Source: Escherichia phage vB_EcoM_G10400. Taken from it: a DNA stretch of 64,000 bases. Both the position numbers and the translations under genes were made by a program. The notes under the pieces are model-generated. The model was given only the letters and a program-made list of their open reading frames with translations. It was not told the origin of the DNA and searched no databases. Location of the stretch: sequence record MK327937.1; one strand, given 5' to 3'. This document shows positions 5,702-38,434 of the stretch, piece by piece (within the stretch, counting starts at the first letter, position 1; every line of letters starts with the position of its first letter).

Positions 5702-5920
5702 TTATTTCTCTAATATAAAATAAAAATCATCATCTGTTAAATGATACCGATAGTTTAATTCTACACCATTAGATTTAAAAGCGGTATCATACGGATTTTC
5801 TGGATCAATATCAATGTCAAGAGCTAAAACTTCCCTGAGATACATTTTAAGTAAATAGGGAATAGCTTCAACTTCAGGTATTTCTTCCAAGAATCCGGAG
5901 AGGTTAATCGTTAGCCTCAT
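5702..5920 (-). CDS. Hypothetical protein
   Basis: 72 aa ORF immediately downstream of gene 55. Confidence 0.4.
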
Positions 5921-6467
5921 ATAAAAAATCCAAACTAGGAGAATCGTCTACAACACTTTTCTTTTCAGCCCCCGGTGTTCTATAGGTTGATTCTTCGTAA
6001 TGCGTCATTTTATCGTAGATGTCTTGAATAAAAGTTTCATCTACTAACGCAACCATATCGTCGTCACGACTGTCATAGACATTGTGAACGAAGTAACTAT
6101 ATTTCTTTGCAACTTCCTTACGTTCTTTTTTAATACGTTGGACGAATGCATTAAAACAAGCTTGAGTTATATACGCATGTGGGTTTTTATATTTCGTTTC
6201 ATCAAAATTATGAAGCCCCTTAATAGAAGCTTCTATACCATCTGCAATCATTTCTTGTTTCCAAGACTGGGTGTATCCTGAAAAGTTGAAACGTTTAGAT
6301 AAGCCTTCTGCAATAAGCATAATGGCTAATCCGATAGTATCATTTTGACGAACTACTTTATTTGGGTCTTTATTATTTGCTAATTCTGTTTTCCAATCAA
6401 TAATAGCTTGTAAAAGCTCTTTATTGTTTACGTAATTATATTTAGGCTTAGTTTCTGGCATTTTCAC
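5904..6467 (-). CDS. 55: Late-promoter sigma factor gp55
   Basis: 187 aa; sequence ([22 protein letters not shown]...) matches T4 gp55 from memory. Confidence 0.9.
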
Positions 6468-30815: not shown

Positions 30816-31232
30816 TTAAATGTAAATATTTTTACCGTAATACTTATACCAATGTGGTTTCATTAAAATTTTTTCATCAAGTCGTTGTTGACTCAATTTA
30901 ATAGCTGATTTGCATGGATTATAATCATTTTTCCATTCTACTGGAATATCGCTGATGTCAGGAACTTCAGTATCTTTTATACTGAACCCTCGTTTTAAGC
31001 ATTCCGTTATAATGTCCGATTGACGCTTTCGCAAAAATTCTAACTTATCGTAAAAGAACGTAACATGACCAGAACCTAAAATAAACTCGGAAGATATTTT
31101 AAAATCTTTAACGCGCTTACCGTTTGCCACATGCTTACGAACTATACCAAAAACACGTGGCAATTCACGGTATTCTGCGATTAAATGTTGATCAGCAAGT
31201 TCAGATACTAAAGTCAAATTAATACGAGTCAT
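30816..31232 (-). CDS. denV: Endonuclease V (pyrimidine-dimer DNA glycosylase)
   Basis: 138 aa; near-identical to T4 DenV from memory ([17 protein letters not shown]…). Confidence 0.9.
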
Positions 31233-31251: not shown

Positions 31252-31822
<571 letters not shown>

Positions 31823-32278
31823 TTAAAAGAGGTTGTTCATTATTCGGTAAAGTGAAGGACCCATCACATATTGCCACTGAGTACGAGGAATAAGAGCAAA
31901 AGCGTCCATCTCTGGAATCATAACGCCATCTTTATTTTCAAAATAAGACTCGCAGCGGCAATTTCTAAACATCTCATGCTCTACTGGAATCATATAATAA
32001 AACAACTGTAGGTCTTTATTACTAGAATATTTAAATACACCTAGGTCTTCTAGAAGGTCTGGATTATAATTGCTAAAACCGGTCTCTTCTAAACATTCTC
32101 TTCGTGCTGCATCTAATGCGCTTAAATCAGAATTTTCTACACGGCCCTTTGGAATATCCCAACGATGTGCCATCATTCCAGGCTTACGAGAACCAGTAAC
32201 CCGACCCATAAATAAATCTTTATCTTCTGTCATAAAAATAATACCAGCTGATAATGTTTTCATTTTAATTTCCTGCAT
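31823..32278 (-). CDS. nudE: Nudix hydrolase
   Basis: 151 aa; Nudix box (…GRVENSDLSALDAARRECLEETGF…). Confidence 0.85.
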   Translation of the reverse strand: MQEIKMKTLSAGIIFMTEDKDLFMGRVTGSRKPGMMAHRWDIPKGRVENSDLSALDAARRECLEETGFSNYNPDLLEDLGVFKYSSNKDLQLFYYMIPVEHEMFRNCRCESYFENKDGVMIPEMDAFALIPRTQWQYVMGPSLYRIMNNLF

Positions 32279-32748
32279 TCAGTGATAAAGTTATTTAAAT
32301 TTTGAGTATATTTCTTTTCATCAAAAATCTTTTGCTGTCTGCGTAACCGCCATGGCATTTCAATGAACGCGCACCATATCCCAGATAATATTGCTGCTGT
32401 CAAAATATTAACAAGCATAATTAAAAGAATCCAATCTCCTGTTCTGCCTATTGGACTTTCTCCAAAGAAGCAAAATACGAATGATGACACAGGAAGACTA
32501 ATAATATACCACAGAATCATAATTTTATTTGTAAACCAATCAGCATTTGTTAACTTAGCGCGACCGTTTTGAATACATACGAACTTATCATCTGTTATAG
32601 TAGATGGCTTAGCTGCTTGATATCCCATTCTAAACTCCCTAATCAAACAAATTTTCATATCTTCGGAACAACCATTCCAGTCAACTCTATCAACTGAAAT
32701 GCCATCATCCCCATCATCTAAATCATACCAGCGAGTTTTTAAAATCAT
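32260..32748 (-). CDS. Membrane protein (first of three tandem paralogs)
   Basis: 162 aa; transmembrane helices and a conserved C-terminal tail ending …ITECRKLK. Confidence 0.5.
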   Translation of the reverse strand: MILKTRWYDLDDGDDGISVDRVDWNGCSEDMKICLIREFRMGYQAAKPSTITDDKFVCIQNGRAKLTNADWFTNKIMILWYIISLPVSSFVFCFFGESPIGRTGDWILLIMLVNILTAAILSGIWCAFIEMPWRLRRQQKIFDEKKYTQNLNNFITECRKLK

Positions 32749-33107
32749 TTAATTTTCCTACAATCACTCACAAACTCTTCCATTGATTCTTTTTCAATAT
32801 AAGACATGTAGCTATTATATTCTTTTAATTGTATTTTGTAATCTTTTTTTCTTTGCCAATTTATTTTAAAATTATCATAATGAAAATATAACATGGTACC
32901 AAAGAATGAAAATAATGAAATCGCTATAGTATAACGAAGTTCACTCCAAACCTCTGTTATAATTACTGTGCCGTCAATGTTTAAAATAAAACAGTCAATT
33001 AACAATCCAATAAGACTACCCGCAAGAGCTGCAAATACTGATACAGCAAGAATTAATAGTGACTCAGGAAACGAATATTTGACTTTATTTAATTTTGGCT
33101 TTTGCAT
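32745..33107 (-). CDS. Membrane protein (second tandem paralog)
   Basis: 120 aa; two transmembrane helices; tail …VSDCRKIK. Confidence 0.5.
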   Translation of the reverse strand: MQKPKLNKVKYSFPESLLILAVSVFAALAGSLIGLLIDCFILNIDGTVIITEVWSELRYTIAISLFSFFGTMLYFHYDNFKINWQRKKDYKIQLKEYNSYMSYIEKESMEEFVSDCRKIK

Positions 33108-33502
33108 CGTGATTCCTTAACAAATTTCATAATTTCATCAAATTCATACATATCAAGTTTAAGCTGATGTTCTTTTTTAATCTTTTTGCACTGGGCTTTC
33201 CAATCACGTACACGTTTACGATAGTGTCTTCCTTGATACCAGTATCCTATCCAATTTATAGGTACTAATAAAATTGGAACTACAAATGGAAGAATTAGCG
33301 TTGACGCAAATATTGTATTAGATTCAATATCAGTCATAACGTCTATAACCATTCCAGCAATCAGCAGAATCACAAATGATACAGCTACCACAGGACCTAT
33401 TAACACATCAGTAGAAATTATCTGACGCTTTAATTCATACTTCAACGGTTTACTTGGAAGGTATAGTGATGGTTTTGACATATTCTCTGCATTCCTTAAC
33501 AA
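33089..33502 (-). CDS. Membrane protein (third tandem paralog)
   Basis: 137 aa; transmembrane helices; tail …KESRCKSQN. Confidence 0.5.
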   Translation of the reverse strand: MLRNAENMSKPSLYLPSKPLKYELKRQIISTDVLIGPVVAVSFVILLIAGMVIDVMTDIESNTIFASTLILPFVVPILLVPINWIGYWYQGRHYRKRVRDWKAQCKKIKKEHQLKLDMYEFDEIMKFVKESRCKSQN

Positions 33503-34055
33503 ATTTTTCTAATAATAAATCGCTTTCAAAATTGGGATTTTCTACGAATTTATCAAAAAGATCATCAACAATAGTTAAGATATTCTTTTTACTAAGAATA
33601 CGTTTATTTTCATGCTTCGTTTCAGAATCAACTATAAGAGTAAAGAAATATTTCTTGCCCTGAAATTTTACAGTAGTATCAATATAAAATAAATTTGACT
33701 TTTGTAAATTACGTTTAAACCATGTGTCACTTAAACTATAAATACCGAGATAATCATAATCGTCGTTTAAATAACATACTGTCCATTCAGGAGAAATGAA
33801 ATCAGTAAATTCAACATCAAAATCACACGTCAATGAATGAATTGATTCAATACTGTTAATAAGTATTCCAGGACGTATTAAAGACTTTTTACCTTTATAA
33901 AATCCAGAAAGACTTTCATCAGTTTCATATGAAGAACCCCAATAATAATTACGTCCTTCTGCCATACGTTTAAGAGCATTTAGTAATTGGTCTGGAACAT
34001 CAACCTGTCTTTGAAACTCTTCAAACATTGAATTGAAATCACTTTGCATTTTCAT
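33450..34055 (-). CDS. Hypothetical protein
   Basis: 201 aa ORF. Confidence 0.45.
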   Translation of the reverse strand: MKMQSDFNSMFEEFQRQVDVPDQLLNALKRMAEGRNYYWGSSYETDESLSGFYKGKKSLIRPGILINSIESIHSLTCDFDVEFTDFISPEWTVCYLNDDYDYLGIYSLSDTWFKRNLQKSNLFYIDTTVKFQGKKYFFTLIVDSETKHENKRILSKKNILTIVDDLFDKFVENPNFESDLLLEKFVKECREYVKTITIPSK

Positions 34056-34076
34056 TCCTATTTACTCCAAGTAATA

Positions 34077-34091
34077 GGGGCCCGAAGCCCC
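34077..34091 (-). terminator. UUCG-tetraloop hairpin
   Basis: Minus-strand RNA GGGGCUUCGGGCCCC; weak U-tract. Confidence 0.4.
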
Positions 34092-34097
34092 TTATCA

Positions 34098-34691
34098 TTA
34101 TTTCAGAGAATTAATATATTCCTGAACATCGGCAGAGGTAGTTTCAACCCCAGAAATATTACCATTAAAGGTTTCAACTCGAGCAAGAGTATCTTCAATA
34201 TCAACCTTAGTCAGTGCTGCAATTTCAACTACATCATCAGCAGTACTAATTCCAAGGGCATTCGCTGCACGAGTTTCACGGATATATTCCAATTTAACCG
34301 CAAGTTCTTGACGAGCATCATCTAACTCAACTACTTTCTTGGCGATTTCAATTCGCATTTCAGCATAACCGTCAGCCTTAGTAGTCAACTGCTCAGCTGT
34401 TCGACGATATAGTAAACCGAGTTTAGCATGCATTGTTACATCTTGACCTTCGGAAAGAAGCTTGCGAATTTCACGCTCTTTTGATTCGGCTTGCTTATTC
34501 TTTTCGACAATAAGTTCACGAATACGCTTTTCTTCATTAATAGATTTAACGGAAGCAGTTTTTAGATCTTTAATCTTATCAAGTAGTTTTGCTGCCGCAG
34601 CAGTATACTGTTCTTCAACAGATAGATTTTTAGCCATAGCAGAACCAAGTTTAGTGCGAATAAACTCAACAATTTTCTTCAGTGTGTTCAT
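34098..34691 (-). CDS. Coiled-coil protein
   Basis: 197 aa, largely alpha-helical; somewhat higher GC than its neighbours. Confidence 0.5.
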
Positions 34692-35606: not shown

Positions 35607-35641
35607 TACCAAAAAGCCCCAACCTTTTGGTCGGGGCTAAG
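35607..35641 (-). terminator. Intrinsic terminator (repeat copy A)
   Basis: Minus-strand RNA AGCCCCGACC-AAAA-GGUUGGGGCU followed by UUUUUGGUA; 35 bp element repeated at 36166-36200. Confidence 0.6.
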
Positions 35642-35645
35642 AATG

Positions 35646-36119
35646 TTATTTGATTTGTTTAGCAGACCAAATGCGGTCTTTAATAATTTTTTGGATGTCT
35701 TCAACATACTCAAGAGAGTGAGCATGTGGGTTATCTTTGAAACTATAAGCACGAGCTAGCTTTTGGCCTTCAGTTTTGATTACTAAAAGCTCTTTAAGGA
35801 TAGCTTCATATTTAGAGATAATTCCTTTAACAATATTTTTTTCTTGTGCAGCTTTAGGATCTGCTTTAGGAGCAGGTTTACCTGAAGCCTTTGCAAAAGC
35901 AGCGCCAGTAGCAACTAAACTTTTCCAGGCCATACTAACTGCATTTCCCGTAAATCCTTCCGCTTTCATGTCGCGTGCGAACTGGAATCGCGATTCATCA
36001 GAAGCATCTTTATAAGAATATTTACCCGCTGCAATGGCTGCTTTTGCGACAGCTTGAATTTCGGTGCTAGATGCTTCATTTAACACCGCTTCATTTAAAA
36101 ATTGAGTATATGATTTCAT
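35646..36119 (-). CDS. Internal head protein candidate (divergent capsid-targeting sequence)
   Basis: 157 aa; N-terminus MKSYTQFLNEA resembles the internal-protein targeting sequence; a TATAAATA late promoter lies just upstream; alanine/lysine-rich body. Confidence 0.6.
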   Translation of the reverse strand: MKSYTQFLNEAVLNEASSTEIQAVAKAAIAAGKYSYKDASDESRFQFARDMKAEGFTGNAVSMAWKSLVATGAAFAKASGKPAPKADPKAAQEKNIVKGIISKYEAILKELLVIKTEGQKLARAYSFKDNPHAHSLEYVEDIQKIIKDRIWSAKQIK

Positions 36120-36167: not shown

Positions 36168-36200
36168 CCAAAAAGCCCCAACCTTTCGGTCGGGGCTAAG
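36166..36200 (-). terminator. Intrinsic terminator (repeat copy B; end of the tRNA/stable-RNA operon)
   Basis: Same 35 bp element with one substitution (GAAA loop), followed by a U-tract. Confidence 0.6.
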
Positions 36201-36590: not shown

Positions 36591-37256
36591 TTAAAATTTC
36601 ATTTTTCGACCTTTAAACCATCCTTCTGGAATTGGGTCAGTTTTCTTAATACGTTTAGAAACTTTTTCATCTAATGAATGAATCCACATCATGCCAAATT
36701 GGGAATTCTTTTCACCTTGTTGGTGTTTATTTCTGGCGTGAGATTCTTTCATTTTATTAATAGTTTCAGGAGTATGGGTCTTACCCAAGAAAGATTTAGT
36801 ATTTAAAAATTTCTCTCTATACTTAGGATTATCCCAAAGCTGTTTAAACCTTTCTGAACCCATTTTACGATATTTTTCTTTAAGGTCTGGGTCGTTCTCA
36901 AATCTGGTTTTAAAAGCGGCAGCTCCTTTTAAGGAAGCTTCTTTCTTTTTATCCAAATATTCTTTAGTGTTTAAATGGTCCCAACCACCTTCACCACCTA
37001 ATTTCAAATTATAAACATCAGAGCGCTTTAAAAACTCTTCAGTCACAATATTCTTTTCTGACTCAAACATAGAGGTTTTATCGTCAAAGAACTCTAATAT
37101 TTCTTTAGAAAAATTTTCTATACCATACTTATCTTGGGCTCTTTTTAATAATTTACCAGAACCCATATATCCATCATCTAAATTTTCGGTAGAATGAGCG
37201 CCTATATAGATTTTATTATTAATTTTATTTGTTATTTTATAAATGTAATGGAACAT
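36591..37256 (-). CDS. segB: GIY-YIG homing endonuclease SegB
   Basis: 221 aa; N-terminal GIY-YIG motif (YIYKITNKINNKIYIG); embedded in the tRNA cluster, as T4 segB is. Confidence 0.8.
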   Translation of the reverse strand: MFHYIYKITNKINNKIYIGAHSTENLDDGYMGSGKLLKRAQDKYGIENFSKEILEFFDDKTSMFESEKNIVTEEFLKRSDVYNLKLGGEGGWDHLNTKEYLDKKKEASLKGAAAFKTRFENDPDLKEKYRKMGSERFKQLWDNPKYREKFLNTKSFLGKTHTPETINKMKESHARNKHQQGEKNSQFGMMWIHSLDEKVSKRIKKTDPIPEGWFKGRKMKF

Positions 37257-37801: not shown

Positions 37802-38434
37802 TTATTTATTACGTGAAAAAGACTGTTCTATCAATTCTGGACACTTTCGTTCTATCCATTTTCTAGCTTTTTGTGGGCTTATACCTATTATTTTAGCAGC
37901 TTTACTAACCCATCCAAATTTAGAATAATCGATTTTAACTAATTCTTCGTAAATTTCATCAGTTAAAATCTTTTCATTAATATTTACCAGTAAATGATAT
38001 AATTTATTATCATTAGCAATTTTAATGAATCTTTTATAGTTTCCGCCTTTACTTAAACCTAATGAAGTAATTGCAGATGATATAGTAGCCGAATTTAATA
38101 GTGCGTTTAAAATTTCTTCATCACTAACATTATAACGCTTTTTATTATTTTTAATATTTTTACCAGCAAAAGTATCAGTTTGCGAATGGCAATTTGGACA
38201 TAATAATCTTAAATTTGATTTAAGATGATTTTTGTTATTTCCATCAATATGGTCTAATTGCAGAACAATATGCTTATTTTGCCATTTTGAAATTTTACAA
38301 ATTGCACACTCATATGGAAAAATATTTTCTTTTATTATTTTGTCTTTCAGCTTTCCTGTACTAAAATTTGGATGTTTTCCTTCAAAAATTTCAGCTAATT
38401 TAGTATCCATAATATGATTCCCAATTATTAACAA
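37802..38434 (-). CDS. HNH family homing endonuclease
   Basis: 210 aa; HNH core (…LQLDHIDGNNKNHLKSNLRLLCPNCHSQTD…) with flanking Cys pairs; stop codon 6 nt from the 5' end of tRNA-Leu. True start may be the internal ATG at 38410. Confidence 0.7.
   Translation of the reverse strand: MLIIGNHIMDTKLAEIFEGKHPNFSTGKLKDKIIKENIFPYECAICKISKWQNKHIVLQLDHIDGNNKNHLKSNLRLLCPNCHSQTDTFAGKNIKNNKKRYNVSDEEILNALLNSATISSAITSLGLSKGGNYKRFIKIANDNKLYHLLVNINEKILTDEIYEELVKIDYSKFGWVSKAAKIIGISPQKARKWIERKCPELIEQSFSRNK

Follow-up and report, generated by a model that had tools for sequence, protein, structure and literature searches.

Three adjacent genes upstream of the lysozyme gene e of T4-like phages encode small membrane proteins with similar C-terminal ends, and to our knowledge no function has been assigned to any of them. 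This raises the question of whether the three genes are duplicates of one another and what their common end does. It was addressed here in 64,000 nucleotides of Escherichia phage vB_EcoM_G10400 (sequence record MK327937.1), the whole of this stretch being called the window. Judged by its sequence, with a DNA identity of 96% to Tequatrovirus genomes with annotated e.3, e.4, e.5 and nudE, the window belongs to a T4-like phage of the genus Tequatrovirus, and the three minus-strand open reading frames (ORFs) are the T4 genes e.2, in an intact 162-aa allele, e.3 (120 aa) and e.4 (130 aa). These are catalogued, uncharacterised T4 genes and the array itself is already known; a search of the full-text literature found no functional study of e.2 to e.6. 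All three proteins match their families over the whole profile (Table 1) and are 80-100% identical to named T4-like proteins. The gene order e.6-e.5-e.4-e.3-e.2-nudE-e is common to the window and its T4-like relatives, with e.2-e.4 lying between e.5 and nudE, upstream of e. The e region of T4 has the same genes in the same order and differs in e.2, which is frameshifted there and yields a truncated product of 102 aa. A further difference from T4 is that denV directly follows e in the window, without ipII or ipIII. Since e.2, e.3 and e.4 are conserved in >500 phage records and the dN/dS of their tails is 0.07-0.13, they are real genes.

The third ORF had been taken to encode 137 aa. This frame exists as the mechanical maximum (33089-33502, from TTG 33502), but the true start of e.4 is likely ATG 33481 (130 aa, MSKPSLY...), as annotated in T4, AR1 and the RB phages. 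The annotation of T4 and AR1 starts nudE at an alternative ATG further upstream (32278). Neighbouring genes overlap by 4 nt (e.3/e.2, ATGA), 19 nt (e.4/e.3) and 32 nt (e.5/e.4). Early-type promoter matches and no late promoter are located upstream of e.2-e.4, which appear to be expressed early. The label sulfurtransferase, attached to many NCBI records of e.3 and e.4, was rejected, as Pfam and NCBIfam revealed no rhodanese, TusA or other sulfurtransferase domain and the proteins consist of two transmembrane (TM) helices plus one helix.

Table 1. Features of the e region, with positions in the window and protein parts in residues.
Feature	Position	Strand	Remarks
e.2, 162 aa	32260..32748	-	PHROG 2203 (E 2e-76); 100% identical to G10400 protein
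e.3, 120 aa	32745..33107	-	PHROG 2330 (E 6e-59); named e.3 in AR1 and T4 annotation
e.4, 130 aa	33089..33481	-	PHROG 2604 (E 8e-70); T4 and AR1 annotation; likely start ATG 33481
e.5, 201 aa	33450..34055	-	PHROG 2607; soluble (no TM helix)
nudE	31823..32263	-	Nudix hydrolase; last gene of overlapping chain e.5-e.4-e.3-e.2-nudE
e.6, 197 aa	34098..34691	-	All-helical upstream neighbour; context, outside array
Hairpin	34074-34095		GC-rich, UUCG loop; between e.6 and e.5
e.2 motif codons	32272..32289	-	F154-I-T-E-C-R159 (TTT ATC ACT GAA TGC AGG)
e.3 motif codons	32757..32774	-	F112-V-S-D-C-R117 (TTT GTG AGT GAT TGT AGG)
e.4 motif codons	33107..33124	-	F120-V-K-E-S-R125 (TTT GTT AAG GAA TCA CGA)
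e.5 motif codons	33486..33503	-	F185-V-K-E-C-R190 (TTT GTT AAG GAA TGC AGA)
nudE Shine-Dalgarno	32269-32274	-	e.2 AGG AAA codons (R159-K160)
e.2 Shine-Dalgarno	32754-32759	-	e.3 AGG AAA codons
e.3 Shine-Dalgarno	33113-33118	-	AAGGAA in e.4 motif codons
e.2 protein, predicted parts			Acidic N-terminal cytoplasmic domain 1-75; TM1 76-96; short loop; TM2 104-128; basic tail 130-162, end NNFITECRKLK
e.3 protein, predicted parts			Basic N-terminus MQKPKLNKVKY; TM1 17-41; acidic loop of 17 residues; TM2 59-76; tail 78-120, end EEFVSDCRKIK
e.4 protein, predicted parts			N-terminus MSKPSLYLPSKP; TM1 27-49; loop TDIESN; TM2 55-80; tail 82-130
e.4 tail			W-K-A-Q-C-K-K-I-K internal; KFVKESRCKSQN terminal

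Two hydrophobic helices are present in each of e.2, e.3 and e.4 (Kyte-Doolittle), and a hairpin in the inner membrane with both ends in the cytoplasm (N-in/C-in) is predicted for all three because the N-termini are basic and the loops acidic, following the positive-inside rule. The predicted periplasmic loops are tiny (6-17 residues), while the tails comprise 33-49 residues with a net charge of +5 (e.2), +2 (e.3) and +8 (e.4), the C-terminal end of e.4 reading ...MKFVKESRCKSQN. The ORFs, the hydropathy profiles and the motif scan described below thus bear out the sequence-only reading that three small proteins of the inner membrane, encoded side by side, have basic tails and a Cys motif in common. 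PADLOC and NCBIfam had no match for any of the three proteins, Pfam (E up to 1) had none for e.2 or e.3 and sub-threshold, unrelated matches only for e.4, and neither e.4 nor e.5 had a match when its sequence was searched against the PDB. A profile search with e.4 among 1.84 billion representatives retrieved only 6 relatives, none outside T4-like phages, and AlphaFold modelled e.2 with low confidence (pLDDT 52).

The tails carry the peptide Φ-x-x-F-[IV]-x-x-C-R, in its longer form [ED]-Φ-x-x-F-[IV]-x-x-C-R-[KR] (10-12 residues), and its sharing by e.2, e.3 and e.4 is far beyond chance. Among the 331 window ORFs of at least 40 aa, the motif lies within the last 22 residues of e.2, e.3, e.4, e.5 and tk only, its occurrence in tk being a coincidence, and of 67 closely spaced junctions between window genes, 4 bear it (those of e.2, e.3, e.4 and e.5). 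The peptide had been described as a feature of the three membrane proteins; it is indeed found in all of them, but it also occurs in the soluble e.5 (EKFVKECREYVK), 12 residues before the end, and is kept by the e.5 homologues of all sampled genera. Across 38 loci of the e.6–nudE region from T4-like genera, about 20 BLAST-distinct families, two-TM as well as soluble, bear the motif in nearly all members, and about 70 other families of the region have it in none. Soluble carriers besides e.5 are the families f25, f32, f60 and f103, and genera differ in how many two-TM motif genes they have (1 to 5 copies). In e.4 the cysteine is displaced (S-R-C-K), or missing in some genera, and is therefore not strictly required. 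When the whole collection was scanned for FIKECRK followed by a stop codon, 8 matches were obtained, half of them at the expected genes in T4-like contigs and the other 4 by chance inside large ORFs.

Selection on the motif acts at the protein level, because codon choice at F, I, C and R is free: F is encoded by TTT (60) or TTC (29), C by TGT (38) or TGC (30), and R by both codon families (AGA 28, AGG 13, CGT 23, CGC 9, CGA 6, CGG 4). The motif is also retained without a nearby start codon, for example as FVDQCR and FINLCR in e.5 homologues. Furthermore, the tails are under strong purifying selection and the membrane hairpins evolve faster, with a dN/dS of 0.07-0.13 in the tails versus 0.4-1.1 in the TM helices and peaks of 2.6 in the 8-codon loop of e.2 and 1.1 in TM2 of e.4.

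The proposal that the three genes are tandem paralogues found partial support. PHROGs places e.2, e.3 and e.4 in three separate families, and pairwise BLASTP aligned e.3 and e.4 with 20% identity (E 0.003) and e.2 and e.3 over 14 tail residues only. The hhalign probabilities from shallow profiles of Tequatrovirus only (Neff about 1.2) were 11%, 1% and 1% and are superseded by those of deeper cross-genus profiles. With the latter, e.3 and e.4 matched with a probability of 95-97% (E 1.5e-8 to 3.7e-11; z=6.9 against a segment-permuted null), but the signal became marginal without the motif (z=3.0, the observed score being reached in 1 of 100 permutations) and was z=0.3 for the TM region alone. 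The match of e.3 to e.2 (probability 90-92%, E about 1e-6, z=10.7) covers the tail only, and the profile comparison of e.4 with e.2 was not significant. After masking of the motif, the two-TM motif families scored higher among themselves than against motif-less TM families (median 15.3 versus 10.8, Mann-Whitney p 8e-17), where the controls were shorter, which itself lowers the score. Domain order and predicted topology are common to all three proteins, with two TM helices followed by a basic tail and an extra N-terminal domain of 75 aa in e.2. The motif is not a family-specific signature and alone does not prove whole-gene duplication, because soluble e.5 and the other soluble families carry it. 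No long DNA repeats were detected within the array, and a recent duplication can therefore be dismissed. Taken at the level of sequence similarity, e.3 and e.4 probably go back to an ancient tandem duplication, while whole-protein paralogy of all three genes is only partly supported. Because the similarity outside the motif is weak, it is conceivable that unrelated hairpins converged, each acquiring the tail.

We favour, with a probability of about one half, the explanation that e.2, e.3 and e.4 are diverged membrane anchors that display a common cytoplasmic docking peptide. The three proteins would belong to a set of small inner-membrane proteins that diverges fast and is restricted to this locus in T4-like phages, each protein having a two-helix hairpin as anchor and both ends in the cytoplasm, and e.2 would have the same architecture and tail as e.3 and e.4 with an N-terminal domain added. 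The conserved functional part would be the cytoplasmic tail, formed by a basic helix and the terminal motif peptide. Because the same peptide ends soluble e.5 and several other soluble families of the region, the motif seems to act as a docking motif at the C-terminus that is portable between proteins. In the most likely mechanism, where docking and a common partner are inferred, the membrane proteins would offer this peptide on the cytoplasmic side of the membrane to a single common cytoplasmic partner, which could be a host factor or the proteins themselves. In this explanation, e.5, e.4, e.3, e.2 and nudE are read as a single translationally coupled chain. In phage VR7, the syntenic site has e.2, e.3 and e.4 but neither e.5 nor e.6, and the obvious phage-encoded partners are therefore not obligatory. 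A similar logic is known from the clamp-binding tails of T4 gp43, gp33 and gp55, unrelated proteins that address the hub gp45 with one short hydrophobic and charged C-terminal peptide. The gp55 tail is present in the window (gene at 5904-6461); in contrast to the motif described here, the clamp-binding sequence is L-D-F-L, and many of the present carriers are membrane-anchored.

Superinfection exclusion or a membrane-directed effector function had been suggested for the array from the sequence. In this explanation, the hairpins would be inserted early into the inner membrane and keep secondary phages from introducing DNA or damaging the membrane, similar to T4 Imm and Sp, which are small, early, non-essential membrane proteins mediating superinfection exclusion. 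The small size, the inner-membrane location, the non-essential and variable region and the position downstream of early-type promoter matches fit this idea, as do the changing copy number and the rapidly evolving TM and loop sequences (including the peaks in the e.2 loop and in e.4 TM2), a pattern typical of arms-race genes. However, e.2-e.4 show no detectable sequence relation to Imm and Sp, no similarity to any Pfam family including T4 Imm (E up to 1) or to any model of NCBIfam or PADLOC, and no PDB match was obtained. The periplasmic loops offer only 6-17 residues, the strongest constraint rests on a long cytoplasmic tail that is common to soluble proteins, and e.2 is inactive in T4 itself. 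We know of no exclusion phenotype for e.2-e.4, and we regard this explanation, which found no support here, as unlikely.

The function of e.2-e.4 is accessory and dispensable in the laboratory. Besides the truncated allele of T4, e.2 is missing from T2-type phages and fused to e.4 (e.4::e.2) in UFV phages. As listed in supplementary file 15 of the T4 CRISPRi-ART study, knock-down of each gene had no fitness phenotype, all being scored 'Not Fit' (PMC11879866). These negatives are weak because the same screen did not rate e, a known lysis gene, as needed for fitness either (PMC11879866). Redundancy among the genes may also hide the effect of knocking down one at a time.

The motif also has a role in the DNA. 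Its variable middle residues (K-E = AAGGAA) or the R-K pair (AGGAAA) double as the Shine-Dalgarno sequence of the next, overlapping gene. The ATG codons of nudE (32261-32263) and e.2 (32746-32748) overlap the stop codons of e.2 and e.3, respectively, as ATGA, that of e.3 (33105-33107) falls within the R-C codons of e.4, and the AAGGAA of the e.5 motif is located 10 nt upstream of the e.4 ATG (33479-33481). The same nucleotides serve as codons of a conserved peptide and as ribosome-binding site of the following gene, a clear case of dual coding. The peptide might have no function as a protein and be the relic of a reused gene-end cassette, made of the last ~10 codons and the next ribosome-binding site and kept for translational coupling, with the three membrane proteins being unrelated ORFs. 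Apart from the location of the downstream Shine-Dalgarno sequences and start codons within the motif codons, such a cassette would agree with the weak similarity outside the tail, with the exact 16-nt repeat ATTCCTTAACAAATTT at the ends of e.4 (33112-33127) and e.5 (33491-33506), and with a phiE142-like genome that has lost e.3 except for exactly its last 24 nt, retained directly before the next ATG. Against it, the residues F, I/V, C and R hardly vary whereas the codons behind them do so freely, with exchanges between AGR and CGN for arginine, and e.5 homologues keep the motif where the next start lies at a distance of 20-40 nt and where the middle residues do not resemble a Shine-Dalgarno sequence. 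In addition, the other 63 close junctions of the window have Shine-Dalgarno overlaps without the motif, and the low dN/dS of the tails points in the same direction. Codon variation, start-distant motifs and motif-less junctions rule out that the motif is fully explained as a mere shadow of the next Shine-Dalgarno sequence, and the broader cassette explanation appears improbable to us.

It is very unlikely that the three proteins are holin- or antiholin-like modulators of lysis timing or lysis inhibition, since, although they resemble class II holins (S21 of phage 21) in their small size, two TM helices, predicted N-in/C-in topology and charged cytoplasmic C-terminal tail and are encoded two genes upstream of the endolysin gene e, they match no holin family in Pfam or PHROGs, follow early-type promoter matches and not a late promoter, are separated from e by nudE, have longer tails (33-49 residues) with a motif common to soluble proteins and include e.2, which is inactive in T4, a phage whose holin is gpt and whose t mutants do not lyse.

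Returning to the docking peptide, a wider and more doubtful version of this explanation is that the approximately 20 otherwise unrelated accessory families of T4-like phages use the peptide to converge on a single hub on the cytoplasmic side of the inner membrane. This hub could be a host machine or e.6, which may be Vipp1/PspA-like: in a fold search with its model, the top 10 PDB matches were Vipp1 or PspA, a lead that received no support as PspA from Pfam, a PDB profile search or hhalign against E. coli PspA. PspB and PspC of the E. coli psp operon offer an analogy only, being likewise small inner-membrane proteins beside a helical-hairpin protein of the PspA/Vipp1 type; e.2-e.4 differ from them in lacking a family match and in their presence in VR7 without e.6 at the site.

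What is added to the catalogued array is a single protein-level C-terminal peptide, shared by e.2-e.5 and by numerous small ORFans from this region of other T4-like genera. Four or more genes of unknown function are thereby reduced to a single testable question, namely what binds the peptide. If the hub exists, the hyperplastic region would be a cassette system that swaps effectors on a common adaptor, and a common partner, if there is one, would reveal what T4-like phages target with an entire and rapidly changing set of genes.

The region shares 95-97% DNA identity with hundreds of Tequatrovirus (T4-like) genomes, and in the annotation of AR1 and T4 the genes e.6, e.5, e.4, e.3, e.2 (AR1_129 in AR1), nudE and e (lysozyme) follow each other on the same strand. 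Given this shared gene order, the three small ORFs singled out by the sequence-only reading are T4 e.2, e.3 and e.4, already known ORFs of unknown function that the T4 genome annotation, as quoted in the supplement of PMC11879866, describes as 'conserved hypothetical, predicted membrane protein'. The third ORF comprises 137 aa when read from a TTG start; read from the ATG, which is the start in T4 and AR1 and in every close homologue, the protein begins MSKPSLY (Table). The annotated start of RB69 e.4 (MPSKPW; RB69 locus L003, 2127-2148) is probably 21 nt too late, and an in-frame upstream ATG gives MSKPTLYMPSKPW..., in agreement with the T4-type N-terminus. Many NCBI/GenBank copies of e.3 and e.4 (P0053, P0071, P0097, P0098 and others; phages Killian, IsaacDaniel and BW-1) bear the name 'sulfurtransferase'; with Pfam and NCBIfam, neither a rhodanese nor a TusA nor any other sulfurtransferase domain was detectable in them, and the label looks like a propagated misannotation.

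Table. Genes and elements of the e.6-denV region and its upstream neighbourhood (helices from hydropathy, in residues)
Feature	Position	Strand	Product or start	TM helices	Tail end or motif
denV	30816-31232	minus			
e (lysozyme)	31292-31786	minus			
nudE	31823-32263	minus			
e.2	32260-32748	minus	intact 162-aa form	76-96, 104-128	NNFITECRKLK
e.3	32745-33107	minus		17-41, 59-76	EEFVSDCRKIK
e.4	33089-33481	minus	130 aa, ATG at 33481	27-49, 55-80	MKFVKESRCKSQN
e.5	33450-34055	minus		none	EKFVKECREYVK, 12 residues before C-terminus
GC-rich hairpin	34074-34095	minus			
e.6	34098-34691	minus			
Terminator-like hairpin	35615-35638	minus			
Hairpin-flanked ORF	35646-36119		157 aa		
Terminator-like hairpin	36174-36197	minus			
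GIY-YIG-type ORF	36591-37256	minus			
Likely HNH-type ORF	37802-38434	minus			

Hydropathy placed two hydrophobic helices in each of e.2, e.3 and e.4, separated by short, acidic or neutral loops. Since basic N-termini in e.3 and e.4 are combined with basic C-terminal tails (33-49 residues) in all three proteins, the positive-inside rule predicts a hairpin with both termini in the cytoplasm. The low-confidence AlphaFold model of e.2 (pLDDT 52) shows nothing beyond TM2, which continues into one long tail helix. All three tails, as well as the soluble neighbour e.5, carry near the C-terminus the peptide Φ-x-x-F-[IV]-x-x-C-R, where Φ is hydrophobic; in e.4 the Cys is displaced. In the 64-kb window, this motif lies near the C-terminus of these four consecutive genes and of thymidine kinase only, the latter match being a coincidence, and 4 of the 67 close gene junctions carry it, all belonging to e.2-e.5. 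The motif at e.2-e.5 is thus real and not due to chance, and the earlier description of three adjacent membrane proteins with basic tails and a shared Cys motif was borne out by hydropathy, tail comparison and the window scan.

The motif extends well beyond the array. Among the sampled genera, [ED]-Φ-x-x-F-[IV]-x-x-C-R-[KR] occurs within the last 26 residues of nearly all members of about 20 BLAST-distinct protein families, both two-TM (e.4, e.3, e.2, f11, f40, f42, f61, f62, f77, f82, f91, f99, f102, f107 and f108) and soluble (the e.5 families, f25, f32, f60 and f103), and about 70 other families of the same loci are without it. Given that no cross-family conservation was found upstream of motif position -4, it counts as a short linear motif, not a domain. 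Each e.6-anchored locus contains e.5 and, after it, between one and five two-TM motif genes, the latter often separated by the insertion of a block of small, unrelated genes. When 2.9 million viral contigs were scanned for FIKECRK-stop, four of the matches were T4-like and fell at the genes where the motif was expected, and the other four lay within large ORFs by chance. An e.4 profile run against 1.84 billion representative proteins found just six relatives; the set of motif proteins appears, from these searches, to be confined to T4-like phages. The inserts that other genera carry between e.3/e.4 and e.2 (L003 2857-3652, RB69ORF136c-139c; VR7 locus L004, 2024-3283; most of L012-L040) include small soluble paralogues all ending in G-x-W-V-S-S-S-x-x-C, a second conserved C-terminal signature of this hyperplastic region, as well as proteins of 310 and 228 aa; the window is without the block.

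Whether e.2, e.3 and e.4 are paralogues, as had been claimed, was answered differently for the individual pairs. Pairwise BLASTP aligned e.3 and e.4 at 20% identity (E 0.003), matched e.2 and e.3 over a 14-residue tail only, and gave nothing convincing for e.2 and e.4; in PHROGs, which clusters remote homologues, the proteins sit in three separate families. Profiles built from Tequatrovirus alone were too shallow (Neff 1.2; hhalign probabilities 11%, 1% and 1%), and the locus was therefore gathered from RB69, VR7, a Klebsiella phage, a Dhakavirus and 34 IMG/VR contigs anchored on e.6, after which 913 ORFs were clustered and the family profiles compared. With these deeper profiles, e.3 and e.4 reached a probability of 95-97% (E 1.5e-8 to 3.7e-11) and e.3 and e.2 one of 90-92% with the tail alone aligned, and e.4 and e.2 were not significantly similar. 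Against a null model of 100 permutations of alignment columns within each topological segment, z was 6.9 for e.3/e.4 and 10.7 for e.3/e.2 (observed score reached in 0 of 100 in both cases) and 1.4 for e.4/e.2. Without the terminal motif, z fell to 3.0 for e.3/e.4 (1 of 100 permutations reaching the score) and to 2.2 for e.3/e.2; removing the N-terminal MxKPxL of e.3/e.4 as well left 2.0, and their TM region alone gave 0.3. It is therefore in the tail that the similarity is robust. Judged by profile comparison, e.3 and e.4 probably arose by a very old, though not proven, duplication, and the claim of three paralogues is right in part, as e.2 matches through the tail and the common architecture only and has an extra N-terminal domain. 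The array is free of long DNA repeats and has thus seen no recent duplication.

The motif is also intertwined with translation initiation, as each downstream gene's Shine-Dalgarno sequence in the window falls within motif codons: AAG GAA (K-E) for e.5→e.4 and e.4→e.3, AGG AAA (R-K) for e.3→e.2 and e.2→nudE, with start/stop overlaps of 32, 19, 4 and 4 nt at e.5/e.4, e.4/e.3, e.3/e.2 and e.2/nudE. In other genera, the commonest arrangement is K-E or E-E (AAGGAA, AAGGAG, GAGGAA) followed by AAATGA. A phiE142-like contig (L048 3403-3426) has lost e.3 and kept its last 24 nt (FIKECRK-stop) directly ahead of the next gene's ATG, which fits a gene end doubling as the downstream translation-initiation region. 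Codon use at the invariant motif residues is nevertheless free (F, TTT 60 and TTC 29; I/V, eight codons; C, TGT 38 and TGC 30; R, AGA 28, AGG 13, CGT 23, CGC 9, CGA 6 and CGG 4), and e.5 homologues keep the motif with middles unlike a Shine-Dalgarno sequence (FVDQCR, FINLCR, FVKMCR) and the next start codon tens of nucleotides away. Selection therefore acts on the peptide, and a functionless relic of the gene junctions is the less well supported explanation. Protein and nucleotide signals are both present at different motif positions, the two variable middle positions being recruited as ribosome-binding site wherever a stop codon is near.

Across seven Tequatrovirus alleles, dN/dS was 0.13, 0.12 and 0.07 in the tails of e.3, e.4 and e.2, 0.2-0.3 in the N-terminal parts and 0.4-1.1 in the TM helices; the eight-codon loop of e.2 gave a noisy estimate of 2.6. 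The three genes encode real proteins in which constraint falls on the cytoplasmic parts and the hairpin behaves as a tolerant anchor. They are individually expendable: e.2 is frameshifted in T4 (locus L002, 3153-3461; a product truncated to 102 aa, with a gap of 161 nt behind it, retrieved by tblastn in two pieces) and missing from T2-type phages, e.3 or e.4 is missing in several genera, and in UFV05/09/11 the N-terminus of e.4 is fused in frame to the C-terminus of e.2 at the start of TM1, thereby deleting e.3. Protein P0051 and locus L008 are among the records of these natural knock-outs of the array. Supplementary file 15 of a T4 genome-wide dCas13d knock-down screen (PMC11879866) lists e.2, e.3, e.4, e.5, e.6 and nudE as 'Not Fit' and their prior essentiality as 'UNKNOWN'; these negatives are soft, because lysozyme e was likewise not scored as required for fitness.

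The ten best PDB matches of a single-sequence AlphaFold model of e.6, a long helical hairpin (pLDDT 74.6), were all full-length matches to Vipp1/PspA of the ESCRT-III superfamily (best E 3e-4); Pfam, a PDB profile search and hhalign against E. coli PspA gave no support at the sequence level. On the model, the phage may encode in e.6 a PspA-like membrane protein, whose adjacency to small membrane proteins would then echo the host psp operon, an analogy we regard as a lead rather than a result. In the 42 nt that separate the stop of e.6 from the start of e.5 lies a hairpin with a UUCG(G) loop (AGGGGC-UUCGG-GCCCCU), resembling known stable T4 intercistronic hairpins. Further upstream, two near-identical terminator-like hairpins, AGCCCCGACC(G/A)AAAGGTTGGGGC followed by TTTTT, flank an ORF in a manner that recalls the promoter/stem-loop cassettes (PeSLs) of T4-type phages. 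The neighbourhood of the tRNA region, also upstream of the e.x genes, contains a GIY-YIG-type ORF that is segB-like by position and an ORF judged by eye as likely HNH-type from its Cys/His pattern.

No array protein matched a described family in Pfam, NCBIfam, PADLOC or PDB sequence searches. Drawing on anatomy, we consider it most likely that the membrane anchors and their soluble relatives-by-tail would present a common C-terminal amphipathic peptide, with hydrophobic residues at -3, 0, +1 and +4 followed by Arg and more basic residues, to one putative cytoplasmic partner. Neither e.5 nor e.6 is an obligatory partner, since VR7 (L004/L042) lacks both at the syntenic site and retains the tail motif in its e.3, e.2 and 5'-truncated e.4. 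Early expression of the array is suggested by T4-early-type promoter matches upstream of e.6, e.7 and e.8, taken with general T4 knowledge. Superinfection exclusion, which the sequence-only reading had offered alongside membrane-targeting effectors for such tandem membrane proteins, is less well supported than presentation of the tail peptide to a common partner, as is a holin-like modulation of lysis. We found no earlier description of the motif in the literature searched, the coverage of which was poor. The Cys motif is a genuine, portable C-terminal peptide at the protein level, found well beyond e.2-e.4, and its codons double as translation-initiation signals; sharing it turns several ORFans into one testable question.
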